Source: Candidatus Nanohalobium sp.
GTDB lineage: Archaea > Nanohalarchaeota > Nanosalinia > Nanosalinales > Nanosalinaceae
Assembly: GCA_042216335.1 (NCBI GenBank)
Contig: JBDGTY010000072.1
Location: 1-14,539 of the forward strand
DNA: 14,539 nt
Reading direction: 5' to 3'
The notes under the pieces were generated by a model. That model was not told where the DNA came from. It saw nothing but the letters and a program-made list of their open reading frames with translations, and made no database searches. Shown piece after piece: positions 1 to 14,539 of the stretch (position 1 is the stretch's first letter; each line of letters opens with the position of its first letter). Made by a program: the position numbers and the translations under genes.

Positions 1-2
1 TG

Positions 3-1109
3 GATGAAGATCCTGTCAGGAAGAGGAAAACCGAGCTTGTGGAGAGGAAGGGTGTCGGCCATCCGGATTCGATATGCGATGGGATAGCAGAGGCAGTTTC
101 TAGAAAGCTTTCCAAAGAATACAGGGAACGTTTCGGTCACATACTGCATCACAACACGGACGAGGTGCAGCTGGTCGCTGGAGAATCCAGACCCGAATTT
201 TCTGGCGGTGAGATCGTAACCCCGATCAAAGCGATACTGACGGGCCGGGCCACGCACGAGTTCCAGGGAGAAGAAGTCCCTGTAGAACGACTGGCGCTGG
301 AGGCAGCGAGAGATTACATCGATGAGAACTTCAAGGTTTTGAGTTCGGAGGATTTCGAGTTCAAGCCGATGATAGGCGAGACCTCGACCGACCTGAAGGC
401 GGTTTTCTCGGATGAGAAACCGCTCTCCAACGACACAAGCTTTGGAGTGGGGCACGCACCGCTCTCGCCTGTTGAGAAGTCCGTGCGGAAGATAGAGGAA
501 GAGGTGAGAAACATCAATGAAGTCGGAGAGGACGTGAAGGTCATGGCCCTGAGGGAAGATGGAAGGGTGAAGGCGACTGTGGCATGTGCGGTCATCGCCT
601 CAAGGGTCGACGACAGGGAGGAATACGAAGAGGTCCTGGAGGATGTGGAAGAGAAGACGCGTCACGTACTCGAGAACCACGGGCTGGAACCTGAGGTCCA
701 TGTCAACACTGCCGACACTGAGGAAAACGCCTACATCACGGAGACAGGAACCTCGGCGGAGATGGGAGATGACGGCAGTGTCGGAAGAGGAAACAGGATA
801 AACGGCCTGATAACGCCACACAGATCGATGAGCCTGGAGGCAGCTTCAGGCAAGAACCCTGTGACACACGTCGGGAAGATCTACAACTTCCTGGCCCGTG
901 AGATCGCAGAGGAGATCAACAGGAAGACAGGGGAGTTCGCAGAGGTCAAGCTACTTTCACAGATCGGCGCACCGCTCGACCAGCCTCAGAACGTCGAGGT
1001 TCAGACAGGAGCAAGCAGGGAAGTCGTTGAAGAAGTCGTTGAGGAGAAGCTGGATGGCGTCGAGGAAATAACGGACAGTATCCTGGACGAAAAAACCGGT
1101 ACTTTCTAG
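3..1109 (+). CDS. mat: Archaeal-type S-adenosylmethionine synthetase (5'-partial; frame is open from nt 3)
   Basis: Motifs of the archaeal MAT family: [14 protein letters not shown], [59 protein letters not shown], LLSQIGxPLDQP. There is no stop between nt 3 and the GTG at 39. Confidence 0.97.
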
Positions 1110-1132
1110 AAAAATAGGAGAAAAGTTGAGGT

Positions 1133-1324
1133 TTATACTACCCGGGAACCTGGCTCGAGGTTGTACTGGTTGTTCTCTTCCTTCCATTTCTCTGATTCAA
1201 GTTCGCTTGCGTAGCTTTCCAGAACCTCTTCCTCGAGAACATAGAGATCTTCCTCTGTCATATCTTCAGGTTCACCGAGAACCTCTTCAACAAAATCGTC
1301 CTTTTCCTCAGTCAGTTCATCCAT
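1133..1324 (-). CDS. Small acidic hypothetical protein (63 aa)
   Basis: Host-like Glu/Asp-rich composition. A Shine-Dalgarno-like GGGGTGAT lies just upstream of the ATG and an AT-rich TATA-like tract at about 1352-1370. Confidence 0.65.
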   Translation of the reverse strand: MDELTEEKDDFVEEVLGEPEDMTEEDLYVLEEEVLESYASELESEKWKEENNQYNLEPGSRVV

Positions 1325-1390
1325 ATATTGATCACCCCGGGAATCACGGGATTATATCTAAAGCTTTTAACACCCGAGAAAAACCGGCTT

Positions 1391-1405
1391 CGAAAGGTTT
1401 ATAAT
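1391..1405 (+). promoter_or_regulatory. Archaeal BRE/TATA promoter (CGAAAGG-TTTATAAT) with no protein gene downstream
   Basis: Purine-rich BRE followed by TTTATAA, about 25 nt upstream of the structured element at 1433-1486. Confidence 0.55.
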
Positions 1406-1429
1406 CGAGTCTGTAAGGCTTCTCCCCCA

Positions 1430-1490
1430 CAAGAGGACAGGTCAATAACGGCATGACCTCGGACTGACTTCCTGCCACACATCCTCATCT
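1430..1490 (+). ncRNA. Candidate small pseudoknotted RNA
   Basis: Helices GAGGA(1433-37)/TCCTC(1482-86), AGGTCA(1439-44)/TGACCT(1454-59) and GGA/TCC(1461-72). Loop GGCA(1450-53) can pair with TGCC(1473-76). It has an upstream promoter and a pyrimidine-rich tail. Confidence 0.35.
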
Positions 1491-1539
1491 ATCCTTCTAC
1501 ACTGCTCTGAACCAATTTTCAGGACCGAACCTTCTTTCT

Positions 1540-1556
1540 CGGAAACTTTTATAAAA
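1540..1556 (+). promoter_or_regulatory. BRE/TATA promoter of repeat unit 1
   Basis: CGGAAAC-TTTTATAA(1547-1554), about 22 nt before unit 1. An equivalent box precedes unit 2. Confidence 0.7.
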
Positions 1557-1575
1557 GCTGATGAACAAAGTAGAG

Positions 1576-1966
1576 ATGTGACTCACACAGACACGCACGC
1601 GTCTGCCGAGCATAGTACATCTAAGCCGGTCTGTGTGAGAACCTTCTATACAATTTTCTCTAATCTGAATATCCTGTATCGCTGATACAGGATCAGTAGG
1701 TTGGGGAAACCTGGCCTGGCTCACAACTCAGTGGGCCTCGGGCAAAAGGACTCAACCGAAAACAACCGGACTCGCCTCCTGCAGAACGAAAAGCAGAACT
1801 AAACAACTTTCATACCATTATAAACTCGACCAGCGTCAGCTAAATCCGGCAGAAAGGGTTGGAGAACACAAAACCTGGATCACACATCACACGGGACATG
1901 GTAACCACGGACATGAAAAACACATCGGAAAAGACCTGAGAAATCCCTATCTGATTTTCTCTTTTT
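1576..1966 (+). ncRNA. Structured RNA unit 1 (tandem paralog of 2101-2467; ncRNA or small-ORF mRNA)
   Basis: P1 CTCACACAGAC(1582-92)/GTCTGTGTGAG(1629-39). P2 ATCCTGTATC(1671-80)/GATACAGGAT(1684-93). P3 GGTTGGG(1699-1705)/CTCAACC(1751-57), capped by GGCTCAC-AACTCA-GTGGGCC(1718-37). P4 CCGGA(1766-70)/TCCGG(1845-49). T-rich end at 1955-1966. Confidence 0.7.
1578..1685 (+). CDS. Putative 35-aa peptide (GTG start) MTHTDTHASAEHSTSKPVCVRTFYTIFSNLNILYR
   Basis: Open frame from the predicted transcript start to the TGA in hairpin P2. It aligns in frame with the unit 2 peptide. The ATG at 1576 is followed directly by TGA, which weakens the call. Confidence 0.35.
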   Translation: MTHTDTHASAEHSTSKPVCVRTFYTIFSNLNILYR

Positions 1967-2063
1967 ATCTCTGCAGAGATGTTTTCACCAATCTCTATCT
2001 ATGGAAAACTTTTTTAAAGGTTTTTACAGGTTCGGTTGCTTCCTGAGCGAAACCTGCATTCTT

Positions 2064-2078
2064 CCGAACATTTATAAA
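2064..2078 (+). promoter_or_regulatory. BRE/TATA promoter of repeat unit 2
   Basis: CCGAACA-TTTATAAA(2071-2078), 22 nt before the ATG at 2101. Confidence 0.7.
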
Positions 2079-2100
2079 GGCCGGATGTTATTGTTAGTAT

Positions 2101-2202
2101 ATGTCTCACATGAGTCACTTCACGGCGAAATGTATCGGCTCTGTGAGGCATAAGTATACATTCTCAAATATCAGGTCCAATCTGTTTACCCTGTATAACT
2201 GA
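2101..2202 (+). CDS. Putative 33-aa leaderless peptide MSHMSHFTAKCIGSVRHKYTFSNIRSNLFTLYN
   Basis: ATG at the leaderless distance from the TATA box and TGA in the loop of P2. It shares VRxxYT and SNLxxLYx* with the unit 1 ORF. Confidence 0.4.
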   Translation: MSHMSHFTAKCIGSVRHKYTFSNIRSNLFTLYN

Positions 2203-2467
2203 ACAGGGTAAGTAGGTTGGCGCGTCTCCTTGCCTGGTTCTCAACTCAGGGAACCCGGGGCGAAGGAACCAACCGAAAGACATCGGACATCTCACTCCGA
2301 AACGAAAAACTCCAGACTTCACAAACACGACATACAACACACAAGACCTGACGAACACGCTCCGGACAGCAGATCAGGACCTGAAAAACCCTGTTAACAC
2401 GCACCACGAGGCACGATAACCACGACCCATTAAAAACAATTCAGAAACTCACGGAATTTTTCCTCTT
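2101..2467 (+). ncRNA. Structured RNA unit 2 (tandem paralog of 1576-1966)
   Basis: P1 ATGTCTCACA(2101-10)/TGTGAGGCAT(2142-51) plus GAGTC/GGCTC. P2 TTACCCTGT(2186-94)/ACAGGGTAA(2203-11). P3 GGTTGG(2215-20)/CCAACC(2269-74), capped by GGTTCTC-AACTCA-GGGAACC(2236-55). P4 TCGGA(2283-87)/TCCGG(2361-65). T-rich end near 2457. G-U pairs favour the + strand. Confidence 0.7.
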
Positions 2468-2473
2468 ACCTTT

Positions 2474-3256
2474 CTACTTCTTGAAAATCTCGGACAACTC
2501 CACTAAGTTCTCTGCGTCGTTCTCATCTGTCGTATTGCTCGAGGTGAAGATCTTGATGTTCTCGGGTCTGAAGGGCGGGCCGAGAAAACTCAAAGTCCTT
2601 AGACCGAACCTCATCAAACTTTTCGGAGCGGGTAGCAGGAAACAGCGGTAGCCTTCCTCCCTGTACATCTCGGTTGCCAGCTCACCCATCGAGTATTTTT
2701 CAGGGCCGGCAGCGTCCAGGGTCTCGTTGTCGAAGCTCTCGACTGTCTCCAGCACCACGCTGACAAGGTCGTCCCTCAAGATGGGCTGGGTTTCCGCGGG
2801 CAGATCCGGGAATATCCGTGTCGGCGCGAACCTCTTCATCAGTTCCAGAAGTTTGTTTCCCTGGCCGTAGACTGTGGAAGGCCGGACTATAGAATAATCC
2901 TTCCCTGATTCCCTGATCAACTCCTCGGCCTTTTCCTTCGTCCTGAAGAAGCTGTGGTCGACCTCTCCGACGCCGAGAGCGCTGAGGTACACAACTTTTT
3001 CACATTCCACTCCTTCCAGCATGTTCCCGGTTCCCTCGACATGCACCTGCTGATAGGCCTCTTCTGTGGCGAAACCCGGGGCCAGGCCGATGGTGTGGAT
3101 CAGTACGTCGAACTCCTCATCTATCTCAAAACTTTGAGTAACGTCTTCCCTGTAGTCGCCGGTGCTTCTGTCAAGGTACTTCACGTCGTAGAAAGTTTCG
3201 AGTTCGTCTCCTATGGCCTCTCCTATGAATCCTTTTCCCGCTACCAGGACTTTCAT
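2474..3256 (-). CDS. Atypical SDR / NAD-dependent epimerase family protein (NDUFA9-like)
   Basis: N-terminal Rossmann motif VLVAGKGFIG, plus VYLSALG, FFRTKEKAE (variant YxxxK), IVRPSTVYG and QPI..DDL. Confidence 0.88.
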   Translation of the reverse strand: MKVLVAGKGFIGEAIGDELETFYDVKYLDRSTGDYREDVTQSFEIDEEFDVLIHTIGLAPGFATEEAYQQVHVEGTGNMLEGVECEKVVYLSALGVGEVDHSFFRTKEKAEELIRESGKDYSIVRPSTVYGQGNKLLELMKRFAPTRIFPDLPAETQPILRDDLVSVVLETVESFDNETLDAAGPEKYSMGELATEMYREEGYRCFLLPAPKSLMRFGLRTLSFLGPPFRPENIKIFTSSNTTDENDAENLVELSEIFKK

Positions 3257-3350
3257 ACTTACATCTATCCCTGTTTACTCAAAAAGATGCTCGATTTCAG
3301 CCCAGGTTTTTATCGCTTGAAGGGTTAAGAGAGATGCGGGGGTTACAGAA

Positions 3351-4339
3351 GTGTCCGACGATTTCCAGCTCTCGAGGAGAAAGAGCCAGATAACCGGAAG
3401 GCTGGACGAGCTCGAGGAGAAAGAGGATTTCGAAGCGGAGTGGAGCGAAGAAACAATCCATAACCTGGTCGACCTGGCTAAGAAGGGCAAAATGCTTAGA
3501 GGAAGTCTTCTGCTCGAGGCCTGTGAGGCTCTGGACGGCCCTGAACCTGTCAACTATGCCACGGCGATCGAACTCATCCACACAGGCCTTCTCGTACACG
3601 ATGACATCATAGATGAGGACGATGAGAGAAGGGGAGTGGAGACCATCCACTCAAGGTACGGTGAGAGAGGTGAGAGATTTGGCGAAGGAGTCGCGATCTG
3701 CAGCGGCGACATAACGTTTTTCCTGGCTCTCGACCTTATCGCAGATTCGGGGGAACAGAGCGACCGGGCTCTACAGGCGATCTCGGAGTGTTTCATCAGG
3801 ACAGGCCTTGGTGAAATAATGGATGTAGAAACTCCCTGACCGCGGAAGAACCTGGAGAAGACGAGATAGAGAAGATGTACAGGGAGAAGACAGCCTCCTA
3901 CACCTTCGAGCTGCCGCTGAGGCTAGCATCCATTGTCTCAGATAGTCAAGACTCCAGAAAGCTCGCAGAGATTGGCAGAAATCTTGGAGTCCTCTTCCAG
4001 ATCAGGGACGACCACATAGAACTTTTCAGTAACGGCGAGACAGGAAAACCGGATCTCTCGGATATAATGCAGAACAAGAAGACGGTCCACAGGAGGAAGC
4101 TGCTGGAGAAAGCCGGGAACCCGGAACAGATTAAGGGAAAGATGGAGGGCGAGACCTCCAGGGAAGAGGCCGAGGAAGTGCTGGAAAGTTTCCGGGAGAA
4201 CGACGTAGAGGAGGTGATGCGTCAAGAAATTCGGGAAAGGAAGAGTAGACTGGAGAAAAAGATACAGGAACTGGAGAACGGCGGACTTTCCGAACTTCTA
4301 CATGATGTCGTCGAAATGGTTGTGGAGAGGCAGAAATAA
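3351..4339 (+). pseudogene. Polyprenyl diphosphate synthase (GGPPS/IdsA family), interrupted by a 1-nt frameshift near 3830 (may be a sequencing error)
   Basis: The first ORF has GKMLRG, ELIHTGLLVHDDIIDEDDERRG (first Asp-rich motif) and GEIMD. The second frame has EKTASYTF, LGVLFQIRDD and GKPDLSDIMQNKKT. One extra A in GAAAC joins them as DVENSLTAEEPGEDEIEKMYREKT. Confidence 0.9.
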
Positions 4340-4377
4340 GGGAAAAGTTATTATTCTGCCGCAGATATCAATAATAC

Positions 4378-5121
4378 GTGAATCTGGCCGGACTGCAGAA
4401 CCAGATGCTCAAGTCCTACTCTTCCTGGCTGAGGGAGCCGTACAGGGACAGAACCGAGGACGAGTTCCCTTTCGATGCATCGGTCGGCGGTTTCGGCGGT
4501 GAGGAGTACTGGAATGATTTTGGGGAAGCCGAGAATCCTGTGATCTATTCTCACGGTCTGGGCAGAACAGGTGCTGATGGAAGAGAGATATGCCTCGAAC
4601 TCCTGGGAAACGGTTACTCCGGCGGTGAACTGTACGCTGTGACCTACGGAAACTTCCTGCCCGGTCTTGAAGAAGGTGCGGAGCAGCTGGACGAACTTGT
4701 TGGAGAGGTGCTGGAGCATACAGGCGCTGAAGAAGTCGACATAGTAGGCCACAGCATGGGCGGCACAATACCGCTCTACATGATGAAGGAGCACGGCGAT
4801 GGAGATATCGGAACAGTCATCTCGCTCGGCGGCCCGGAGAAAGGATCCTACTGGAACGAATACCTGGAAACATGGGGGATACCCGCCAAAGACGAGATAA
4901 GCATCGAATCAGCCAGGAACGGCAAACTGGCGGGGCTCGACGAACACGAATTCGACGCCACCACAGTAACCGTCCAGGGCACAGAAGACTCCGCATACCC
5001 CGTCAGGGACCCAGAGGAGAGACATATAGGCCAGTACCAGATAACACTGGAAACGACACACGAAGGCCTCAAACACCCGAAGATAGTCGGCGAACTCGGC
5101 AGACAGTTCCTGAGAAACTAG
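4378..5121 (+). CDS. Alpha/beta-hydrolase, lipase/esterase type
   Basis: Oxyanion motif PVIYSHGLG, nucleophile elbow VDIVGHSMGG, candidate catalytic Asp in GTEDS and His in THEGL. Confidence 0.88.
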   Translation: MNLAGLQNQMLKSYSSWLREPYRDRTEDEFPFDASVGGFGGEEYWNDFGEAENPVIYSHGLGRTGADGREICLELLGNGYSGGELYAVTYGNFLPGLEEGAEQLDELVGEVLEHTGAEEVDIVGHSMGGTIPLYMMKEHGDGDIGTVISLGGPEKGSYWNEYLETWGIPAKDEISIESARNGKLAGLDEHEFDATTVTVQGTEDSAYPVRDPEERHIGQYQITLETTHEGLKHPKIVGELGRQFLRN

Positions 5122-6350
5122 CCTTTTTCTACTTTCCTGTCAAACTCCTCACGCATCAACTCCATCACTTCCGACTTCAGGTCCTCGATTTCGGACTCTA
5201 TCTCTTCCTGCCTATCCTCAAGGTTCCTGGATTCCTTCCGGGCGTCCTCCAGTTCTCTTTCCAGTCTCTCCTTCTCCTTCCGCATCTTCCGCCTGTCTTC
5301 CATGTACTCGTGGCTCTCTATCTCGTCCTCTAAACTGGTGATCTTTTCCTGCAGGTTCTCCAGTTTCTCCTTTCTCCCAGAGAAGTTCTTGAAGTAGCTT
5401 ACTCCCTGTAGAAGCCTCTGCCTGGTGGTGCTGTCCAGGAAGTCTCCCTCGACCGACTCCTCGACCGAGTTCGCAGCCTCCTCCACGACCTCGGGATCGT
5501 AGTTCAGTAACTCCTGTTTCTCACCATCCCTGATGCTGCGTAATGCTTCAGAGCCTTTACTCGATACTTTGCCGATCTTTCCCTCGTGAAGCATCTTCTT
5601 CAGCCCGCGCTCCATCCTACCCATCGACTTGCCTATATCCTTCAGTATTTCGTCCCTCTGTTCTCTGGAATCCTCCAGATCCTCCTGTTTCTCCCTGTAC
5701 TCTGTATGTACGGCGCTGTCTTCCAGCTGCTCGATGCCCTGCTTCTTCCTCTTGATCTCCTGCTCCAGCTCCTCTATCTCCTTTTCTCTGTCACTGTCGA
5801 TCGACTCGAGCTCCCCCTTTAACTCTTTCATCTCCTGCAGCTTCTTCCTGACTTCCTCGAACCTTTCTCTCGTCCTGTATTCGTCTTCTATAAACTCTTG
5901 GACTTCCTCATGGAGCTCTGTCAGTTCTTCAAGGCTCTCCGAGAACTCGTTCGCAACGCTGGCCTCCTCCAGCACTGCGCCCTGCTTCTGGCTCATCGAA
6001 TTGAACTCCCGCAGCAACACCTCCAGTTCAGAATCCAGTTCCTCAACGTTCTCCGGGGCGGAGAAGTCCTCCAGGATCCTCAGCCTCTCGCCGACAAAGT
6101 TCTCGATGTTGTCCTCCACGATCGCCCGCTGCTTGTGGTCGTCAAAGTCCTCAAGATCCTTTAAATCGGTTTTCAGCTCCTCCACGGCGGACTTTGTCCT
6201 CTCCCGGAACCTCTCCGATTCCTCGGCTATCCTGTCAAGTTCCTCACTCCTCTCCCTGCGGAAAACCCTCTCCGCATCCACGATTTTCTCCAGTTCCAGG
6301 GGCTCTTCCTCCCTTCCCAGTGCATCTTTCAGATTGTTTAGAATACTCAT
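5118..6350 (-). CDS. Acidic coiled-coil hypothetical protein (~410 aa; likely start MSILNNL at 6350)
   Basis: Long E/K/R/L-rich helical ORF with no Walker motifs. The in-frame ATG at 6350 avoids overlap with the upstream gene. Confidence 0.8.
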   Translation of the reverse strand: MSILNNLKDALGREEEPLELEKIVDAERVFRRERSEELDRIAEESERFRERTKSAVEELKTDLKDLEDFDDHKQRAIVEDNIENFVGERLRILEDFSAPENVEELDSELEVLLREFNSMSQKQGAVLEEASVANEFSESLEELTELHEEVQEFIEDEYRTRERFEEVRKKLQEMKELKGELESIDSDREKEIEELEQEIKRKKQGIEQLEDSAVHTEYREKQEDLEDSREQRDEILKDIGKSMGRMERGLKKMLHEGKIGKVSSKGSEALRSIRDGEKQELLNYDPEVVEEAANSVEESVEGDFLDSTTRQRLLQGVSYFKNFSGRKEKLENLQEKITSLEDEIESHEYMEDRRKMRKEKERLERELEDARKESRNLEDRQEEIESEIEDLKSEVMELMREEFDRKVEKG

Positions 6351-6381
6351 GTACAAGTGTATGTGGTTCAAGCTTATGACT

Positions 6382-6837
6382 TTACTCCTCTGCATTCTCC
6401 GTCCTGGAGTCCGTCCCGATCTCGAAAATCGCGGTGTAGAGGCCTGCTCTCAAGGTCTGACTGTAACTCTCAAGATCCGGGCCGCCAGGTATCTCGCCGT
6501 AGAACTGCCCGGCTTCAATTCCTGCGCCGCACAGGGCACCGGCACCAATCATAGTCATATACTTCGGAATATCAGTCTCAAAATGCTCATCAACACCGGA
6601 GTAATGATAGCCCAGCTCCGCAGCAAGAGAAGAAGCCATTCCAGCCCCCACGTGACCCCAGAAATCACCTAGCTCCGGACTGCCCTCAAGATACTGGTCG
6701 ACAGCAGCATAAGACGCCGCAACAGCGCTAGCAGCCAGCAAACCCACACGGGTCACGTCCTCACGGCCACGAGTCCCATCCATGAAACTCTTCAGTCTAC
6801 GCTCGTCCTCAAGAACGTCTTCATCTAGGTTACTCAT
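6382..6837 (-). CDS. Hypothetical membrane protein, weakly VanZ-like
   Basis: Several Ala/Gly-rich hydrophobic segments with a D..GH...E..Q...D pattern. The ATG at 6837 lies about 27 nt from a TTTAAG box. Confidence 0.65.
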   Translation of the reverse strand: MSNLDEDVLEDERRLKSFMDGTRGREDVTRVGLLAASAVAASYAAVDQYLEGSPELGDFWGHVGAGMASSLAAELGYHYSGVDEHFETDIPKYMTMIGAGALCGAGIEAGQFYGEIPGGPDLESYSQTLRAGLYTAIFEIGTDSRTENAEE

Positions 6838-6883
6838 CAAGAAAAGCACTGTTCAGACAAAACTTAAACAGTTCAAAATGAGG

Positions 6884-6926
6884 GTAGAAAAAGAAAGGTC
6901 GGGCCGAAGAATTGCTAACTCACACC
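6884..6926. repeat. Imperfect direct repeat of 7620-7665
   Basis: GTAGAAAAAGAAAGGTCGGGCCGAAGAATTGC versus GTAGAAAAAACAAGGGCGGGCCGAAGAGTTAC: 27 of 32 identical, followed by CTCAC(A/G)CC in both. Confidence 0.7.
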
Positions 6927-7348
6927 TATATCTGATCTGTGTAGAACTCCTGTATTACTTCTCCGGTTGTATAGACTTCAGAAACCTCCTGTTCCTGTAG
7001 ATCGCTGTCATCACTCCAGATAACTCCATCTATGGCCAGTGCCGCTGCAAGGAAGATCACATCGTCCTCATCTACTTCGGCAAGTTCCTGCTTTGCCTCT
7101 TCAACATGCCCGTCTATTTCATCTTCGTGTAAGATCTCGATATATTTGAAAAGCCTGTCAAGCAGTTCCTCAACTTCCTCATCTTCCAACCCGGACTTCT
7201 CCGCTATCAATCCACGGTAACTCTCTATCTCCCTGTAAATGGCTTCGGGAGCAACCAGCCTCTCATCCATGTTTACTACAAGCTCCCGGGTCTTGGAATC
7301 AGCGATAGCCGCGGAAAGAAGTACGTTCGTATCGACAACGATAGCCAT
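6926..7348 (-). CDS. vapC: PIN-domain ribonuclease toxin (VapC family)
   Basis: PIN acidic motifs VVDTNVLLSA, EI, DEDDVIFLAAAL and IWSDDSDL. Confidence 0.9.
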   Translation of the reverse strand: MAIVVDTNVLLSAAIADSKTRELVVNMDERLVAPEAIYREIESYRGLIAEKSGLEDEEVEELLDRLFKYIEILHEDEIDGHVEEAKQELAEVDEDDVIFLAAALAIDGVIWSDDSDLQEQEVSEVYTTGEVIQEFYTDQI

Positions 7349-7350
7349 CT

Positions 7351-7560
7351 CTAGACACGTGCATCCCTGTTGATCTTCCGGCTCAGCTCCTCTACATCCT
7401 CCTCGGTAAGCTCGCTCCTCGAAGCGATCTCATCCATAACCTCCAAGTCGTCTATCTTCTCCTTTATCGCCTGTCTGGCAACCTCGCTCCAGTTCATCTC
7501 CGGATGCTCATCCATCTTCCGCTTCAACTCGTCGCCAACCGACACAGTAACATTCGACAT
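7351..7560 (-). CDS. Ribbon-helix-helix antitoxin (VapB-like, 69 aa)
   Basis: MSNVTVSVGDELKRKM...NWSEVARQAI RHH pattern. It lies directly upstream of the PIN gene, with a TATA box at about 7583-7590. Confidence 0.85.
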   Translation of the reverse strand: MSNVTVSVGDELKRKMDEHPEMNWSEVARQAIKEKIDDLEVMDEIASRSELTEEDVEELSRKINRDARV

Positions 7561-7614
7561 ATGTGAAAACTGTGCAAGCAAAGTTTAAAACTTTATCTTA
7601 GGAGCGACAAGAAA

Positions 7615-7755
7615 CTGAAGTAGAAAAAACAAGGGCGGGCCGAAGAGTTACCCACGGCTCACGCCGCTTGATCCTTCAAAGAAGGCACGTCATTCCAGGC
7701 CCTACCCGCCCCTACTTCAGAGGGACTACTAGAAACGACCCCGATTTACGGAGTC
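7615..7755 (-). ncRNA. Candidate structured RNA of unknown family
   Basis: Minus-strand fold: 5' hairpin GACTCCG/CGGGGTC; closing stem GGGCGGG/CCCGCCC (7633-39 with 7704-10); GNRA hairpin GCGGC-GTGA-GCCGT (7654-67); GAAGG/TCTTC; AGGC/GCCT. It is followed by a T-run, and a 9-bp inverted repeat CTGAAGTAG (7615-23 with 7711-19) flanks the core. Confidence 0.55.
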
Positions 7756-7877
7756 AAAAACAAATTGTTCAACAAAAGTTAACACTGTAACCTTTTTTTG
7801 AGATTTTCAGGCTGACAACTTGGTGTGGGGAATGGTTTCAGTAATCTGAGAGTATTCTCAATAAATTGAAAATCTGG

Positions 7878-8312
7878 CTACTTCAGGTCTTCGATAATAC
7901 TGTTCATCTCCTCGATGAAGGGCTCGACTCTCTCCGACATGAAGTTTTCTGCCTCTTCCTCGATTGTCTCTGTGATCTCTGTTTCGTAGTTCACGTCCTG
8001 CCTGCGTTTGTAGATCCTGTTCATATCCTTCGATAATTCCTTTTCCTCCAGTACCCTGCCAAGCCCTTTGATAGTACAGAGATGCGTGTTGACCTTGTAG
8101 CCTTTCAGCGCCAGTGCCTGCTCAACCTTCTTCTCTGCGGCAAGATGTCCAAGTACAAAGACGCCGGCGGGAGTATCTGTACCCAGTAAATTTCTGGCGG
8201 CGTTCAGGAAATAATCGGAGTTGGACTTCTTCCTCTCCGCCAGTCTTTCCCTCTCGGTTGGGCTTTCCACAGTGGAGGCTCCCGGCCCGACTGTTATCTC
8301 CTGTTCCGACAT
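7878..8312 (-). CDS. HEPN-domain protein (partner of the MNT)
   Basis: Helical HEPN pattern (FLNAARNLL...GHLAAEKKVEQALALKG...TH, then RRQDVNY), directly downstream of an MNT gene. Confidence 0.8.
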   Translation of the reverse strand: MSEQEITVGPGASTVESPTERERLAERKKSNSDYFLNAARNLLGTDTPAGVFVLGHLAAEKKVEQALALKGYKVNTHLCTIKGLGRVLEEKELSKDMNRIYKRRQDVNYETEITETIEEEAENFMSERVEPFIEEMNSIIEDLK

Positions 8313-8340
8313 GCAGTCTTCCTTCCACTCATCCTCTTTT

Positions 8341-9075
8341 CTAATCTTCGTTCACCTTATATTCTGCCAGGAAATCCTTCAGCTTCTCGATCCTCTCTGA
8401 ATCCTCTTTGAGATCTCTGGCTGCAAGATGTTCCAGTCCCATGCCTTTTCGGATCACTTCCTCTAACCCCTTGCTGGAGGAGTAAAGTATGCTGAAGCCT
8501 TCTAGCATAATGGATTGAGCCAGTTCGGATTTCTCCTCCCCGAACTCCTCTTCGAAGTCATCTCTTTCCCGGACAACCACAGAGAACTCTCTTTCATACC
8601 CTTCCAGCACATCATAGATCTCATCCTCTTTCTCGGTACTCCTTTTCTCAAGCACCAGATAAAGATCGATATCGCTTTCAGGGGTGAAGTCGCCCCTGGC
8701 CAGGGAACCGAATACGATGATCATTTCAATACCTTCTATCCCTCTCAAACTCTTCTCCGCATCAAAAAGAATGTTCCTCAGATGCGCCGGCAAGTCCTCC
8801 AGGCTGTATTCCTCGCTTTCCGCCTCGAAAAGCTTCCTGACCTGGTCTGCCAGAGAGCTCTGCCTGTTCAACCTGTAGTAATTCCCTTTGCCCTCTGTCC
8901 TTACACCGGTAATAACGCCTTCCCTCTCCAGCTCACGCACCGCATCGTAGATAACCGAGATATTCTTCGTGGTCTCCTTCTCCAGCTCCTGGGGAGAAAA
9001 AGCACTGGAGCTGTCACTGAGCACACGCAAAACCTGCACCTTGCTCGAAGACGACAAAACACCCTCAACACTCAT
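8341..9075 (-). CDS. wHTH-fused minimal nucleotidyltransferase (MntA-like antitoxin)
   Basis: N-terminal winged helix (KVQVLRVL...ELEK...VYDAV-like, LEREGVI...YYRLN) and the GS-x10-DxD motif FGSLARGDFTPESDID. Likely start is the ATG at 9075. Confidence 0.9.
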   Translation of the reverse strand: MSVEGVLSSSSKVQVLRVLSDSSSAFSPQELEKETTKNISVIYDAVRELEREGVITGVRTEGKGNYYRLNRQSSLADQVRKLFEAESEEYSLEDLPAHLRNILFDAEKSLRGIEGIEMIIVFGSLARGDFTPESDIDLYLVLEKRSTEKEDEIYDVLEGYEREFSVVVRERDDFEEEFGEEKSELAQSIMLEGFSILYSSSKGLEEVIRKGMGLEHLAARDLKEDSERIEKLKDFLAEYKVNED

Positions 9076-9193
9076 TACATTTCTATCGTAAAAATCAGGC
9101 TCTACTTTTAAATAAATACTCTTTTTACGAAGAAGTCGTAGAAACTGCAAATTACTTATAAAGAAAAAGGATTTAATTACGATAATTTCGTAA
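9075..9193. promoter_or_regulatory. Three TTACGA-N5-TCGTAA palindromic operators interleaved with two TATA-like boxes
   Basis: 9075-9091 TTACAT-TTCTA-TCGTAA; 9125-9141 TTACGA-AGAAG-TCGTAG; 9177-9193 TTACGA-TAATT-TCGTAA. TATA-like tracts lie at 9106-9114 and 9155-9163. Confidence 0.75.
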
Positions 9194-9315
9194 CTTTGGC
9201 TGGGCTGAGGTGGTTATCTTCGGACCAGTCGCCAGAATTCCTTTAGAAAACTGAAGTTAGTTGCGTATGGGTATCAGGACGTTGCTCGGAAAAATACCTT
9301 TGGTTGAAATAATAT

Positions 9316-9708
9316 CTAACTGGCGTTCTGCTCAAAGTAATCTGCTGAAACCCTGAGGTTACCTTCCTCTACCTCGATATCGTCGTTGCCAAGCCTGATT
9401 TCCGGGCCGTTGGGATTCTGGTGTGCCGCAGGCTCATGGTCCCTATCATCCACCAGGAAAGCAGTCTGCTCGGCCACAGGAACCAGAGCCCCGCCGTAAC
9501 TCTCCGTATGCACCGTAACTCTGCGGTTCTCATCCGAATAACTGAACCTGTAACTGTCCTCATCATCAGGAAGATCAACGCCAAGCTCTTCAGCCAGACC
9601 CTCTATATCATCAAGCAGATCCGATTTTAACATACCGACTGTGTCTCCCATACCGTCGTCTACCTCATCCACAGGCACAGCATCGTCATACCTTCCGTTC
9701 CAGGCCAT
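9316..9708 (-). CDS. Acidic hypothetical protein (~130 aa)
   Basis: Asp/Glu-rich ORF. The ATG at 9708 is about 27 nt from a TTTAAA box. No family recognised. Confidence 0.7.
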   Translation of the reverse strand: MAWNGRYDDAVPVDEVDDGMGDTVGMLKSDLLDDIEGLAEELGVDLPDDEDSYRFSYSDENRRVTVHTESYGGALVPVAEQTAFLVDDRDHEPAAHQNPNGPEIRLGNDDIEVEEGNLRVSADYFEQNAS

Positions 9709-9761
9709 AAGCAACCACTAATACGCAGAAAACAGTTTTAAACCTATCGAGCATCCGGGCC

Positions 9762-11102
9762 TCAGATCCTGTCCGATATCAAGCTCTCCAATCTATCCTC
9801 AAGATCAGAAACCTGGACGATCCTCACAGGACCATCCTGCTCTCCGACACTCTGAACCTGTCTGTCCTCGAAGTCCTGAACCACGACCAGTCCCTGCCTC
9901 TCACCGCCGAAGGAATCACCGTCGTAGATGAAGTCGTCTTCATCCCTCAGGAACGCCAGGTACTCCAGGGCCTCCTTGATACCCCTCTTCACAGTCTTCT
10001 CATTCGTCGAATTCTTCACCTCCGTGATAAAGAACTCCCTATCGCTGGAAACCTTATCAATGATCTCCACAAGGATAACGTCTGGTCTCCCGGTAACCTG
10101 GTTAGTGTCCCTGTCAAAGTAGTCCTGTATAATCTCCCTCGACTTCAGCTCGACCTGTTCCGGCCTAGAATACGGTTTATCAGAGTCCTTCTCGGGATCA
10201 TACTTGAACTCTATGCCGAGGTCTCTGGCCGAGCTGTCATGGTAAACCGCTATCTCCTTCTCCTCGCTCTCCATAGATGCGATCCGCTGTGAGCCGGTCG
10301 AAACAGTGTTTAAGGAACAGCTGTCCTCCTCAATACTCTCAATAGTTGAGATAAATCTAAACAGGACGAAAAGCTCGAGCAGCGTCTCCTCATCTTGAGG
10401 CCTGATCACAGTCTTGTCCAGAAGCTCCCTGATCTCCTCTCTATCGCCCGAGAAAATGTCCTGTCTCTTCCTCAGAAGCCTGGCAGACTCCCTGTAAAGA
10501 CCTTTGCGTGAATTTTCCGCCGAATTAAGCATTCTTTCAGTTGGCTCGTATTCTTCTGGATCCTTGATTCTCTTGACGTGGACGTTCCTCTCAAAGATGT
10601 TCTTCATGTTTTCTACTAGGTCTTTTTCATCTCTCCATCTTTCGCTCCACTCATGATTCCTGTCAAAGAAGTCCTCGCAGTCCTTCAAGGTATTGTAGAT
10701 AACGCTGAGAAGCCTCTTCAAGACTATATTCTCTCCTGTGTCGTATCTCTCCGTTTTATTCTCACAGACAAAAAGCGATGTGTCACCAGGGTTCCTAGAG
10801 TACCTTTCCTGAATGGTTGAACTCCAATTGATTTTTCCATCTACAGATCCTCTCCTAACTCTGGATCTGTTTTCTGTCTCGGTGTTGACGGATCGAAGCT
10901 CGGACTCAAGATTTTTTACAAACTCTATAACGTCTTCCCGGAGGACAAAGTGGAAGTCCATCAACTTCTCATACTCCTCGAAACGTGAGTCAAGGTCCGT
11001 CGGCTTCAAGCTCTCGGCAAACTTCCTCTCAGGGAAATTGCCGTGCATCACGTAGGTGAGGATGTCCTCAGTCAATCCGTCGATTAACTCATTCTTCTCC
11101 AC
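9762..11102 (-). CDS. McrC-like PD-(D/E)xK nuclease subunit
   Basis: McrC-like N-terminal motifs (VDGKINWSSTI, DTGENIVLK) and C-terminal GRPDVILVEI...EVKNS...EALEY. It overlaps the stop of the McrB-like gene. Confidence 0.82.
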   Translation of the reverse strand: MEKNELIDGLTEDILTYVMHGNFPERKFAESLKPTDLDSRFEEYEKLMDFHFVLREDVIEFVKNLESELRSVNTETENRSRVRRGSVDGKINWSSTIQERYSRNPGDTSLFVCENKTERYDTGENIVLKRLLSVIYNTLKDCEDFFDRNHEWSERWRDEKDLVENMKNIFERNVHVKRIKDPEEYEPTERMLNSAENSRKGLYRESARLLRKRQDIFSGDREEIRELLDKTVIRPQDEETLLELFVLFRFISTIESIEEDSCSLNTVSTGSQRIASMESEEKEIAVYHDSSARDLGIEFKYDPEKDSDKPYSRPEQVELKSREIIQDYFDRDTNQVTGRPDVILVEIIDKVSSDREFFITEVKNSTNEKTVKRGIKEALEYLAFLRDEDDFIYDGDSFGGERQGLVVVQDFEDRQVQSVGEQDGPVRIVQVSDLEDRLESLISDRI

Positions 11103-13523
11103 TTATATCGACCTGCAGCATGTTTCTGGCAGTCCTCTCCAACCTTTCATCGTCCAGTTCAACATCGGCCTTGGAAATAGACTCGACAATCTGCTTCCTC
11201 TCAGGAACACCTTCAAGTTGTGGGAAGATATAGTTCGTTATCGCTGCAGTATTCGACTGTCTGTTAATTCCCGCTTCGTTCAGGAACTCTAGGATGTCCT
11301 TCGCAATTGCTGGACCGATCTCCCTGTCAACATCTGCAGAGTTAACCTGCTTCCAAATCCTAACAGTATTCACAACCTCATCGTCTTCCGCAGAAAGATC
11401 CATCTTCCAGGCATCCAGGTAGCCTTCCATAAGCTGTTTTCTCTCATCTTTTTCATCCGGAATCTCTGGAGCTTCTACTCTGATGAATGAGAATCTTCTC
11501 ATGAAAGCGTAACTCATCTCGTATAGCGAAGTCTTGTCGTACGTATTCATCGTCGCCATTATCTCCACGACTCAGGAATCACGTAATGATGCTTATCAGG
11601 ACTGTTCGAAGCCCTTTCATGACTTCCCGGCAAGACCTCAATCTCCCTGTCGTTCTCCGCCGTGAAAGGCAGCTGAACCCTCTGACCTGAGAGAACAGTG
11701 AAAAGCTGTCCGAACGCCTTGTCGATATCCGCCCTGTTAATCTCATCAATAACCAGCAACTCATTCTTCTGATCCCTCTCACCGTCCTTGAAACGCTTCA
11801 GAACCTGGCCAGGACTAAACTCTAGATCGCCACCGCCGTTCTTCTCAGGCATGAACCCGCCGACAGTATCAAAAGTCGACCAATCAGAAGTAGCAGTAGT
11901 CAACTGATGACCTGAAACGTTCGAATCATTCTCCATCTCCTCCGCCACAACCTCCGCCAACTCAGTCTTACCAGTACCAGGCGGACCAGTAAAGATAACA
12001 TGCTTACCAGAATTGATAGACGCCTTGATCTGATTTTTCAAAGACTCTTCCTCCTCTGGGAAATAAAGGTTGTCAAATTCAAGTTGGAAGTCTACAGAAA
12101 TATCTTCTTCAGGATTAATGTCGGATTCTTTTTCGTTAACAGGAGTTTCTAATGAGAGGATGGTTTCGAACTCCTTCTCGTCAAGCTGAAAAATGCTGCC
12201 CTGAGCAGTATTGATCATTGGTTTGGAACTCTCCAAATCCGGGATCTGACTTAGTTTACTCCATGAAACTTCTCCACTAATCTGCCTACCATATCTCAGA
12301 GTGATGCCTTCAACTGGTTCACTATATCCCTCAACTTCCTCTTTATGAAGGCCGTCACTAACAACGCCTTCAGCCACAACCCTCTTCACAGGTGTAGACT
12401 GATAGAAAACAACTCTATCTCCTTCAGAGGCTTTCTCAAAATTACTGAAAATCCTGGCCTTGTTCCCAGAAGGTAGATAAGCAGGATAAAACTTCTCGTC
12501 GCCTTCATTCAGCTCTGAAACCTTCCAAATCGAAGGATCAGCGGTAATCCAGAAATAATTCTTAGAGCTCTCAGGATCAACTTCTCCCGTCTCAAAGTCC
12601 TCAATACTTTTCTCACCGCCGTCATCCTCTATATCAGGATACTCCAAATCCTCCTTTGTGTCAAGATAATCTAAGTAGGCTTCCGCTAACTGCACAAAGT
12701 CATCTTCAACCTGTTCAGATTCAGGAAGATTCCCTAGTTCATACTTCTTCTGATAAATAGTACTTTCCTCGTAGAGCTTGTCGTTATCAGAAAGATCAGG
12801 GTTCTCGGTACTGAAGCCCTCAAGATCAACTTTTTCTCTAATCTCTTCCGCTCTGTCTTCTAAAGTTTCTCTAGCTTCGCCTCTGCCATTGCAACTTTCG
12901 ATAACTTCTGTGGTGCCCTGATTCAAAGTAGCGTAGACTGCCTGGTTCTCAGGATCGAACAAGTAAACAATGTAGACACCTTTCTGAGTAGTATCGGTTT
13001 CATCAGGATGTAAAACTGCGACCCATGGAATATTGGCCCAGTTTCCCTGCCCCGCAGAACCAACGAAAGCCCCAGAATTCAAATCAAGATCAGTTTTCTC
13101 GTCGGATAGATAGTTCAAGAGAATAGGAACTTTCTTTTCCAACAGCTTGAACAATCTAGTATCCCCATCCAACCTACTAGGCCTATCCGGATAAAGATTC
13201 AATATTTCTTCCAAAGACTCTTTCAAGTTTTCTGCAGCATGATTCTTCTGATTGTAGGACTCAAAACCAAGTTGATCGAAAACTTCCTCAACCTTCAAAG
13301 TACCAAAATCATTCCGAGAATCAGCCACCTCCTTAACCGACTCAATGTTATAGAAAACATGCTTAACCGGCTTCCTCACACCATCAACCTCAATAAAATG
13401 CCACGGAGAAACATTATACTCAAAATCACTGAACTCAGCACCAGTCCGCTCAAAAGCATCCCTTACATCCGATTTAGAAATAGAAACAATTTCCCCGTTA
13501 ATCTTAGTTGAAACTTCAGACAT
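11089..13523 (-). CDS. mcrB: McrB-family AAA+ GTPase with several N-terminal DNA-reader domains, split by a 1-nt frameshift at about 11562
   Basis: Walker A GPPGTGKT and Walker B LLVIDEINRADIDKAFG. The McrB signature MNTYD and AFMRRF are in the second frame. Also a DUF3578-like segment (GQGNWANIPW...GVYIVYLF...LNQG) and an EVE-like segment (YFWITADPSIW...GDRVVFYQS...QGSIFQL). Likely start is the ATG at 13523. Confidence 0.88.
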
Positions 13524-13613
13524 AGACAAGGTATCGGGAGGCAAGGTTAAGTTTTCTTCGAACTCGAAACCAGAAGGAAAGAAGAAATAAAGTGCCTTGA
13601 GTTAAAGGAGAGT

Positions 13614-14294
13614 ATGTCAAGAGCAGGACCTCTAAAACAGATATTAAGACAACTCAATATCAAAGAATTGAGGGAACTTAGGAAAGAATTTTGTCCTAGA
13701 GTAACAGAATACTCAGGAAACAAGACTGAATTTGTGGATAGTCTAAGGAATTCAATGAAAAGATCTATAGAAGATGGAGAACTAAGCTATGCGGAAATAT
13801 TCTCAAAAATAAGGTCAACAATCAAAGAAGACGGCCCTAAACAAGTTACTACCAGAATCCGGCATTCCATGGAAAATCTAGAAATCTCTAGGAACGTACA
13901 GAGTAGAAAAACCACCAGCGTAAGAGAAAAATGGATTAGCTCTGAACTATTCCAATCACTGAAATACCAGTTAGAAGATACAAATTACGAAATCGAACAA
14001 GAAGCAACCTTCGGCAGAACAGCAGCCGATCTATTAGTACACCAAAATAACAGAAACTACGTTATAGAAACTAAACTAGCCAGCAGCTACTCCAGCAGAG
14101 AAAGACTCCTCAACCAGGTCAAAAAATACAAGAAAAAAGTTCCGAACCTCCGCAGAGTCTTCGTACTTCTCATCGCGGAAAATGAAAGAGATCTACCAGA
14201 AAACAAAGACTCAGTAAAACATGTGGTTGACGAAGTAGAAAAAGAAGACAAAACAGAAGTAATACTCAAGAAGCCGAGCGACTTCAGAGACTAA
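13614..14294 (+). CDS. PD-(D/E)xK-family nuclease-like protein with a small helical N-terminal domain
   Basis: EQE...ADLLV...YVIETK...LNQVKKY matches the E, D, ExK and QxxxY pattern of restriction-endonuclease-like folds. Confidence 0.7.
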   Translation: MSRAGPLKQILRQLNIKELRELRKEFCPRVTEYSGNKTEFVDSLRNSMKRSIEDGELSYAEIFSKIRSTIKEDGPKQVTTRIRHSMENLEISRNVQSRKTTSVREKWISSELFQSLKYQLEDTNYEIEQEATFGRTAADLLVHQNNRNYVIETKLASSYSSRERLLNQVKKYKKKVPNLRRVFVLLIAENERDLPENKDSVKHVVDEVEKEDKTEVILKKPSDFRD

Positions 14295-14539
14295 ACTTCA
14301 CTGAACTTCTCCAAAATCGAGGCCTTCTCACCTTCAGAAGTATCCAGCGAGTCAAGCACTGTCTCAACCTCTTCCCCATTCAAATCATACAGGTCGAAGA
14401 CGATGGCATCAATCAACTCATCAGCCTCCTGAATCTCCTCCTCTAATTCCTTGGCTTCTTCCCTGTTCTCAACGAATTTTTCGAGGCCTTGTTCTACATC
14501 TTCCAGCTTCGGCAAAGTCAACTTCTCCAACCTGTCAAT
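14291..14539 (-). CDS. C-terminus of a probable type IIG (Eco57I/TaqI-like) restriction-modification enzyme (5'-partial)
   Basis: LEEEIQEADELIDAIVFDLYDLNGEEVETV resembles the 'ID..VY.LY.L..EEI' tail of N6-adenine MTase / type IIG proteins. The frame is open to the window edge. Confidence 0.7.
   Translation of the reverse strand: MDRLEKLTLPKLEDVEQGLEKFVENREEAKELEEEIQEADELIDAIVFDLYDLNGEEVETVLDSLDTSEGEKASILEKFSEV

Follow-up and report, generated by a model that had tools for sequence, protein, structure and literature searches.

Small RNAs (sRNAs) that also encode a small protein are known in bacteria as dual-function RNAs, with RNAIII/hld, SgrS/SgrT and SR1/SR1P as examples, and the spRNAs of Methanosarcina mazei are reportedly an archaeal case of this type. 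A second relevant class comprises the regulatory leader and arrest peptides, such as TnaC, SecM, ErmCL and MifM. Among halophilic archaea, sRNA-encoded small proteins have been described in Haloferax volcanii (PMC12482152), and a conserved 266-nucleotide (nt) intergenic nanohaloarchaeal sRNA with a predicted structure, STRG.4577.1, was described from a halite metatranscriptome (Gelsinger et al. 2020, PMC7002113, Fig. S6A). Nanohaloarchaea are genome-reduced DPANN symbionts, and almost nothing was found in print on their regulatory RNAs. Here we analyzed a 14,539-nt stretch of DNA from Candidatus Nanohalobium sp. (the window: contig JBDGTY010000072.1 of assembly GCA_042216335.1, positions 1 to 14,539 of the forward strand) that carries two related units, A and B, in tandem. 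We favor, with a rough probability of 0.5, the reading that each unit is a free-standing dual-function RNA gene, in which a leaderless micro-open reading frame (micro-ORF) is fused to a conserved RNA domain.

Like the described dual-function RNAs, each unit appears to be a short transcript with its own promoter and terminator, in which a micro-ORF is joined to an RNA body whose conservation and structure exceed the demands of coding. The units differ from them in that the ORF is leaderless and overlaid by covarying helices, with its stop fixed at a hairpin before an invariant junction, and in that neither sequence nor model searches link them to a family described in Rfam. They share with leader and arrest peptides an open frame whose N-terminus and middle are variable, with constraint confined to the C-terminal 10-13 residues and the position of the stop, and we propose that here too the position of the ribosome would set the structure of the downstream RNA. 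In contrast to leader peptides, no same-strand gene follows, the unit ends in a T-tract, and the next gene is convergent or unrelated and varies between genera. Nor is any alternative pairing backed by covariation, as the alternative helix CCAAUCUG/UAGGUUGG was 87% paired with 0 compensatory pairs, equal to shuffles.

The comparison with halophilic archaea is closer in setting. The haloarchaeal ribosome-associated non-coding RNAs (PMC12482152) are also small RNAs of halophiles; they engage ribosomes and show little or no sign of encoding a conserved protein. The present family has a candidate 16S-complementary motif in its tail; however, there is no sequence relationship, and the motif is degraded in the window's genus. 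Published work on nanohaloarchaeal small or non-coding RNA, RNA-seq and leaderless transcripts yielded no description of the present RNA. The family is present in the complete genome SG9 (L030, CP012986.1), which presumably comes from a halite community of the kind that yielded STRG.4577.1. If STRG.4577.1 is the same RNA, there would be expression evidence and the family would already be partly in print, without its ORF. STRG.4577.1 differs in length, measuring 266 nt versus ~390 nt here (PMC7002113).

The two units lie head-to-tail in a gap at 1325-2473 (1.15 kb) that has no long ORF inside. Measured from promoter to T-tract, unit A occupies 1541-1972 and unit B 2064-2483, corresponding to RNAs of ~390 and ~370 nt. 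An earlier note, made from the sequence alone, had described a tandem pair of diverged ~370-390-nt units, and this description holds, with 74% column identity in the alignment and direct-repeat offsets of 515-523 nt. Of the parts that it named, the following were present in both units: a transcription factor B recognition element (BRE) with TATA box, P1, P2, AGTAGG, P3 with an AACTCA loop, GAAA, a TAACCACG..AAAAACA block and a T-rich end. The features of the two units are as follows.

Unit A
1541..1556, + strand: promoter with BRE-like GGAAAC and TATA box TTTTATAAAA, in register in all aligned units; 23 nt from the end of the TATA 7-mer to the start codon
1578..1685, + strand: micro-ORF of 35 codons with GTG start and TGA stop in the P2 loop
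1580..1640, + strand: P1 hairpin with a variable 39-nt loop, wholly within the ORF; conserved core 1582-1588 pairs with 1633-1639
1671..1693, + strand: P2 hairpin ATCCTGTAT / ATACAGGAT; the stop codon spans the loop and 3' arm
1695..1700, + strand: AGTAGG linker, invariant in 27/27 aligned units; its final GG opens P3
1699..1757, + strand: P3, a long irregular hairpin with invariant apical CAACTCAG; loop AACTCA at 1725-1730
1758..1761, + strand: GAAA directly 3' of P3 (invariant columns G183 A184 A185 A186)
1762..1954, + strand: A/C-rich tail with weakly conserved motifs (AGC..CAGCTA; GGTTGGAGAA..AAAACC; genus form of AGGTGAT at ~1893-1909)
1955..1972, + strand: T-rich tract, likely an archaeal terminator

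Unit B
2064..2078, + strand: promoter with BRE-like CCGAAC and TATA box TTTATAAA, 23 nt to the ATG
2101..2202, + strand: micro-ORF of 33 codons with ATG start and TGA stop in the P2 loop
2101..2151, + strand: P1 hairpin in the subfamily-B form that includes the AUG (minimum free energy fold)
2188..2209, + strand: P2 hairpin ACCCTGT / ACAGGGT
2211-2216, + strand: AGTAGG
2215-2274, + strand: P3, loop AACTCA at 2243-2248
2275-2278, + strand: GAAA
2279..2483, + strand: A/C-rich tail and T-rich terminator region, with the T-rich part at 2457-2483

The structure was analyzed in an alignment of 27 units and 231 columns. RNAalifold recovered P1, P2 and a three-part P3 with 30 pairs, 18 of which changed on both sides (7/7 pairs in P1, 3/6 in P2 and 8/17 in P3). 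In total 95.4% of cells were paired, compared to 25-43% when the 3' partners were slid by 1-3 columns, and 0/500 column shuffles equaled the observed value on any of five measures; these two controls leave phylogeny unmodelled. P2 cells were 98% paired, the P3 helices were 95-98% paired with compensatory changes, and an extra 3-bp helix within P3 (CCU/AGG) was 95% paired with one compensatory change. The changes that the earlier note had read between the two units, ATCCTGT/ACAGGAT versus ACCCTGT/ACAGGGT in P2 and GGCTCAC/GTGGGCC versus GGTTCTC/GGGAACC in the P3 cap, are correct in the alignment of the two units. AGUAGG, the CAACUCAG apical loop and GAAA were invariant in 27/27 units and kept in the most divergent members. 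The AGUA and GAA strands flanking P3 may resemble the sarcin-ricin/loop-E consensus.

Both units also folded more stably than their dinucleotide shuffles (z = -3.3 and -3.2, with 0/100 shuffles as good). A covariance model, R1, was built from the P2-P3 core of the 27 aligned units (118 positions, 25 pairs). Covariance-model scores for units A and B were 134 and 98 bits on the + strand (unit B on 2166-2283) versus 25 bits on the minus strand, in agreement with the + strand having been named as the RNA strand, and in the scan of related genomes R1 gave 98-137 bits in sense and 22-30 bits in antisense. These findings indicate that the structure is almost certainly real and selected. One helix was not confirmed: the 'P4 around an A/C-rich loop' proposed earlier has no consensus structure in a 21-unit full-length alignment, nor has any other part of the tail.

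Searches against known RNA classes returned nothing for the units. Rfam 15, whose families include RNase P, SRP, 5S, C/D and H/ACA RNAs and riboswitches, gave 0 matches at gathering score in the whole window, and in 1330-2500 at E <= 10 it gave four matches only, all at chance level (12-19 bits, E > 3) and three of them on the minus strand. ARAGORN found 0 transfer RNA (tRNA) or transfer-messenger RNA genes in the window. Candidates for the genome's RNase P RNA (full-length, G000:C48:1305-1644, 34 bits, E 1.5e-8, against a gathering score of 84) and signal recognition particle (SRP) RNA (G000:C38:13072-13347, 84.7 bits, against a gathering score of 96.5) lie elsewhere in the genome, and therefore the units are not diverged copies of those RNAs. 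Because both candidates score below the Rfam thresholds, standard annotation would miss both in this lineage. The present family also shows that annotation based on Rfam under-detects RNAs there. A scan for bacterial-type promoters and terminators, whose bacterial model is not applicable to archaea, gave 0 promoter-like sites and one terminator-like site in a number not above that in shuffles. The covariation in the 27-unit alignment and the absence of an Rfam match thus bear out the proposal of an unannotated, promoter-driven, structured RNA family. The family is not simply non-coding, since in 53 distinct units P1 and P2 lie across a leaderless ORF of 27-55 codons.

This conserved ORF, which extends from the predicted transcription start across P1 and into the P2 loop, had been overlooked in the first reading. 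In the first 17 units, an ATG 21-23 nt past the TATA match (in unit A the GTG at 1578) opens a frame of 30-38 codons that stops in the P2 loop, 8-9 nt before AGTAGG, and from the start to P2 there were 0 stops in frame 0 versus 46 and 26 in the other frames. When the ORF was reduced to its variable part by removing the first 4 and last 9 codons, 27 units showed 0 stops in 587 codons in frame 0, compared to 31 and 36 in frames 1 and 2. When this part was shuffled by mononucleotides, the mean was 30 stops and the minimum 13, with 0/2000 shuffles stop-free, and thinning the set to 23 units gave the same picture.

Units outside this sample behaved in the same way, with the ORF kept in 10/10 new named contigs and in 26/28 further model matches. 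One of the two exceptions has only 10 nt of upstream sequence, and the other is the divergent second copy in L030 (CP012986.1). Among divergent members, G017 has 35 codons, a TAG stop and a compensated P1 (GCTCCT/AGGAGC), and G018 has 38 codons with the stop just past P2. A third tandem copy in G002 (G002c) keeps an ORF of 34 codons.

The final tally covers 53 distinct units, with the divergent L030 copy counted apart. The start codon is ATG in 52 units and GTG in 1, and the stop codon is TGA in 35, TAA in 17 and TAG in 1. An ORF length of 35 codons was found in 36 units, with 38 codons in 5, 34 in 5, 33 in 3, 55 in 2, 30 in 1 and 27 in 1, so that all length variants (27, 30, 33, 34, 38 and 55 codons) are in frame. 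The distance from the beginning of the stop codon to AGTAGG was 12 nt in 43 units (range 6-13), and that from the end of TTTWWAA to the start codon was 22-23 nt in 52. Among ORFs of at least 100 amino acids (aa) in the window's genome, the TATA-to-ATG distance peaks sharply at 23 nt, which places the start of the micro-ORF at the genome's leaderless-gene position. Taken together, these patterns in the aligned sequences make it likely that selection maintains the open frame and hence that it is translated.

The 55-codon forms contain an in-frame 60-nt insert before the PNILY end that encodes a partly conserved QIQ[YFH]..DLL.E and, when read by eye, looks like two hairpins. Library peptides of this type are P0001, encoded on contigs L086 (11350-11467) and L107 (3800-3917), and P0003; a further one is encoded on contig L091 (2401-2518). 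Read-through or recoding into a longer protein was considered and rejected, as every frame of the tail contains stops and the subfamilies do not share one frame relation past P2. The ATATG of the family reads ATGTG in unit A, and as a result the in-frame start is GTG (1578), the sole GTG start among the 53 units. The same A-to-G change introduces a start-stop pair, ATG-TGA, in another frame at 1576-1581, where the 5' end is predicted.

Selection on the peptide was examined by the ratio of non-synonymous to synonymous changes (pN/pS) in 7 independent close pairs. Codons 23-30, which lie between P1 and P2 in no predicted helix, gave a pN/pS of 0.29 (10 synonymous and 11 non-synonymous changes, binomial p = 0.006), compared to 8.5 and 1.6 for the same stretch in the other two frames. 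The P1 loop, codons 6-18, gave 0.74, which was not significant, and 15 non-independent pairs gave 0.13 and 0.98. P1 pairing is kept while the encoded residues change completely, from MTH../..CV. to MSL../..CK. (G013, L048) or MIG../..YA. (G024). In the aligned peptides the last ~13 residues ([FY]xx[YF][IF]SNL[NF]ILYx) look constrained and the remainder looks to drift. The peptides are polar and basic, with abundant S, T, R, K and H, and are hydrophobic in a short C-terminal tail only. No Pfam family was found for the peptide, and a profile search of 1.84 billion representatives returned 4 matches, namely 3 family members and 1 spurious 895-aa protein. The AlphaFold model is a low-confidence helix (predicted local distance difference test score, pLDDT, 65; predicted template modeling score 0.23) and is uninformative.

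The RNA continues well past the ORF. Taking its length by a simple rule from the start codon to the first T-rich tract, a rough estimate, most long forms measure ~365-420 nt and short forms ~303-312 nt, two units were estimated at 409 and 459 nt, and the range across the family is ~300-460 nt. A T-rich tract comparable to that of unit A closes the family units at a conserved RNA length. The untranslated part is ~200-280 nt, two to three times the length of the ORF, and the tail has no ORF conserved in any frame. A tail motif, A(A/G)GGTGAT, stands ~44 nt past P3 in the short-tail forms and ~130-151 nt past it in most long-tail forms, and a GGTGR word of some kind occurs in the tail of 28/48 units. 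In its RNA form, A(A/G)GGUGAU, the motif shows complementarity to the 3' end of 16S, ...GGAUCACCUCCA, an end that was read in the 16S genes of 3/4 relatives; extraction for the fourth gave no canonical 3' end, and the 16S gene is absent from the assembly of the window's genome.

In the window's genus the tail motif is degraded to GAGG...GATAACCACG. The TAACCACG block that had been singled out earlier is indeed present in both units as a genus-specific form, where most other genera have AGGTGAT. Two further ideas about the tail were rejected. No start codon stands at a consistent spacing behind the Shine-Dalgarno-like motif, as a conserved ORF there would have, and pairing of the tail AGGUGAU with an upstream UCACCU occurs inconsistently, in some units only.

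These units define a long structured RNA family with a conserved micro-ORF that has no Rfam counterpart and is specific to one family-level nanohaloarchaeal clade, that of the window's genome (f1). BLAST of the unit pair against 40 relatives matched 15/24 f1 genomes and 0/16 genomes of four other families of the order, and the best-conserved stretch, P2-P3, was 83-91% identical across genera. Over 70 genomes of the order, R1 found homologs in 27/49 other f1 genomes and in 0/20 genomes of four other families. The family spans at least 14 genera with compensatory changes, and its carriers include complete or near-complete genomes such as L030 (CP012986.1), L047 (CP046106.1) and L051 (NZ_CP180230.1).

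A degenerate DNA pattern made of the AGTAGG linker, the P3 loop word and CGAAA was searched more widely. It matched 25 contigs in a collection of species representatives, 21 of them archaeal, of which 20 are titled Nanohaloarchaea, Nanohalobium, Nanosalina or Nanohalarchaeota and 1 'uncultured archaeon'. The 4 contigs of bacterial metagenome-assembled genomes were set aside as chance matches, as they have no promoter, ORF or model match. In metagenomes the pattern matched 36 contigs, 26 of which R1 confirms; the other 10, together with 2 viral-contig matches, had no R1 match and were likewise taken as chance. A laxer re-search of five high-quality f1 genomes (93-98% complete, one single-contig) gave a best match of E 0.13 and none that was real, indicating that the RNA is patchy within f1.

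Most genomes carry one copy and some carry two or three. Having two copies beside the S-adenosylmethionine (SAM, AdoMet) synthetase gene, which the earlier note had taken to characterize the family, is therefore not a family trait, as neighboring genes also differ between genera; the AdoMet-synthase neighbor recurs in only one other locus, of the same genus. In a maximum-likelihood tree of 47 units, unit B and six others (G002b, G003 and four metagenome units) form a long-branch clade with 100/100 support; in each of the seven the ORF counts 33-34 codons and the AUG is part of P1. Unit A clusters with G001 and L117. In G002 an A-type unit is followed by a B-type unit, as in the window, and a third copy is present as well. 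Only the A type occurs in G001 and only the B type in G003, and the B subfamily is found on its own in another genome of the window's genus. Units A and B thus belong to separate deep subfamilies and are old paralogues, not a recent tandem duplication.

A divergent second paralogue type (54-58 bits), with its own TATA box, lies 1.5-1.7 kb downstream of the main copy in L030 (3428-3537) and L091 (4075-4190). The L091 copy has a 27-codon ORF with its stop in the P2 loop; in the L030 copy there is no stop at P2 and the frame runs 59 codons through P3. The only recurring neighbor was a 405-aa coiled-coil protein, which lies within 0.1-3.4 kb of the RNA in 5/28 loci and is present in 36/50 family genomes. 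Since these include some genomes without the RNA, it is not a specific partner.

For the dual-function reading, the family offers a small ORF with signs of selection, given by the open frame in 53 units and the pN/pS values, and an RNA conserved beyond coding, given by the 18/30 compensatory pairs and the invariant elements 3' of the stop. In the mechanism that we propose, the transcript would start at or beside the AUG and its 5' third would be translated as a leaderless mRNA, with the ribosome melting P1 and P2 as it proceeds. The leading edge of the terminating ribosome would reach approximately AGUAGG, just before P3, so that a ribosome with the stop codon in its A site would never enter P3. 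In this way translation status could control whether the 5' domain folds or is accessible, and the P3-plus-tail domain would serve as an RNA-level effector or binding platform, to which the nascent C-terminal peptide or translation would be coupled. The C-terminal ~13 residues may be a nascent-chain signal at termination or the end of a functional micropeptide. That the peptide or its translation and the RNA domain both matter is, on this comparative evidence, about an even bet.

Several observations weigh against the dual-function reading. The pN/pS signal comes from 21 substitutions only, and column entropy, computed over 22 units, lacks a three-base periodicity (loop 1.48/1.57/1.52, linker 0.97/1.02/1.05), so that deep conservation at the protein level is weak. 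With a stable P1 starting 3-4 nt past the AUG, leaderless initiation should be impeded, and GTG, with which unit A begins, is a poor leaderless start. The RNA is dispensable in some lineages of the family, and no conserved partner gene was found among the neighbors compared. A bolder version of the dual-function reading is a long shot: a translation-gated, ribosome-engaging regulator whose leaderless 35-codon frame would load a ribosome at the 5' end and park it at the AGUA-helix-GAAA junction, with a tail bearing a 7-9-nt match to 16S. If true, the RNA could act as a sensor or a sink of ribosomes in a symbiont with a reduced genome, which would be a kind of device undescribed in archaea.

Other readings account for parts of this evidence. 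If the 35-aa peptide were the sole product, each unit would be an ordinary small-protein gene in which P1, P2, P3 and the tail are cis-acting mRNA elements, for 5'-end protection, translation control or, as a 3' untranslated region, stabilization. The conserved frame, the leaderless promoter geometry and the frame-specific purifying selection at codons 23-30 fit such a gene, as does the occasional prediction of the ORF by gene callers (3 members in 1.84 billion representatives). It is nonetheless doubtful, as the most conserved part (AGUAGG, P3 loop and GAAA, 27/27) lies downstream of the stop, the long untranslated part keeps motifs at 44 or ~145 nt past P3, most of the peptide evolves neutrally, and the peptide has no Pfam family and a pLDDT of 65. 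The converse reading, a pure non-coding structured RNA whose open frame is an untranslated by-product, draws on the strong covariation, the variability without codon periodicity, the position of P1 next to the AUG and the GTG start of unit A. Most ribosome-occupied sRNAs of H. volcanii also showed no coding potential (PMC12482152). What makes this reading improbable is the open frame itself, with 0 in-frame stops in 587 codons against ~30 expected, length changes that are all multiples of three (including the 60-nt insert in two lineages), a stop always at P2, ATG in 52/53 units at leaderless spacing, and a pN/pS of 0.29 in that frame only.

The patchy distribution, variable neighbors and tandem copies would also be explained if the units were a selfish or mobile small-peptide module, of the type I toxin-antitoxin sort or another, for which a highly structured mRNA with a small peptide in 1-3 copies would be fitting, and the window also has a PIN-domain ORF, a HEPN and nucleotidyltransferase pair and a McrB-like ORF. 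Such a module is very unlikely given a polar, basic peptide with no hydrophobic membrane segment, no conserved antisense promoter or structured antisense signal seen in the sequence (antisense model scores of only 22-30 bits), 0/2 viral-contig pattern matches that were real, and no terminal repeats or adjoining mobility genes at the units. A decaying tandem duplication without function, which the mere 74% likeness of A and B within the window might suggest, is hardly credible when the family is kept in at least 14 genera with compensatory changes and A and B sit in separate old subfamilies, each with relatives elsewhere.

Under the dual-function reading, the family would be a clear case in which covarying helices and a selected reading frame share the same nucleotides, and its 53 distinct units hold enough natural variation to define the fold. 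If a cultured strain carries the RNA, translation-coupled RNA function in archaea would be directly testable.

The window belongs to a genome (G000) of 1.02 Mb in 74 contigs that is 96% complete. The genes that flank the units, and those of a cluster of defence-like ORFs further along at 6926-14294, are as follows.

3-1109, + strand: archaeal AdoMet synthase gene (PF01941, E 1.9e-136)
1133-1324, - strand: 63-aa ORF after the AdoMet synthase gene
2474-3256, - strand: 260-aa NAD-binding ORF, convergent to the units
6926-7348, - strand: PIN_2 domain ORF
7878-8312, - strand: HEPN ORF, adjoining the nucleotidyltransferase ORF
8341-9150, - strand: nucleotidyltransferase ORF
11559-13544, - strand: McrB-like protein with MrcB_N and AAA_5, preceded by family-less ORFs of 446 and 159 aa
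13614-14294, + strand: HSDR_N-like ORF

Polyprenyl synthetase (PF00348) is present as two adjoining same-strand ORFs at 3351-3839 and 3875-4339, which cover profile positions 6-126 and 141-247; the split could be a frameshift, a pseudogene or an assembly error. Two further promoter-like motifs were seen near the units. One, CTTCGAAAGGTTTATAA at 1388-1404, lies ~150 nt upstream of the unit A promoter and may be the promoter of the minus-strand 63-aa ORF or of some short transcript. The other, GGAAAACTTTTTTAAAGG, is a weaker third copy of the promoter motif between units A and B (1991-2021 / 2031-2044 region), with 65% identity to the unit A promoter. The sequence 3' of it, TTCGGTTGCTTCCT, shows 93% complementarity to unit B's P3 3' arm with CCGAA and 86% to the same region of unit A; this stretch could be left over from a duplication joint or represent a short transcript of antisense-like character.

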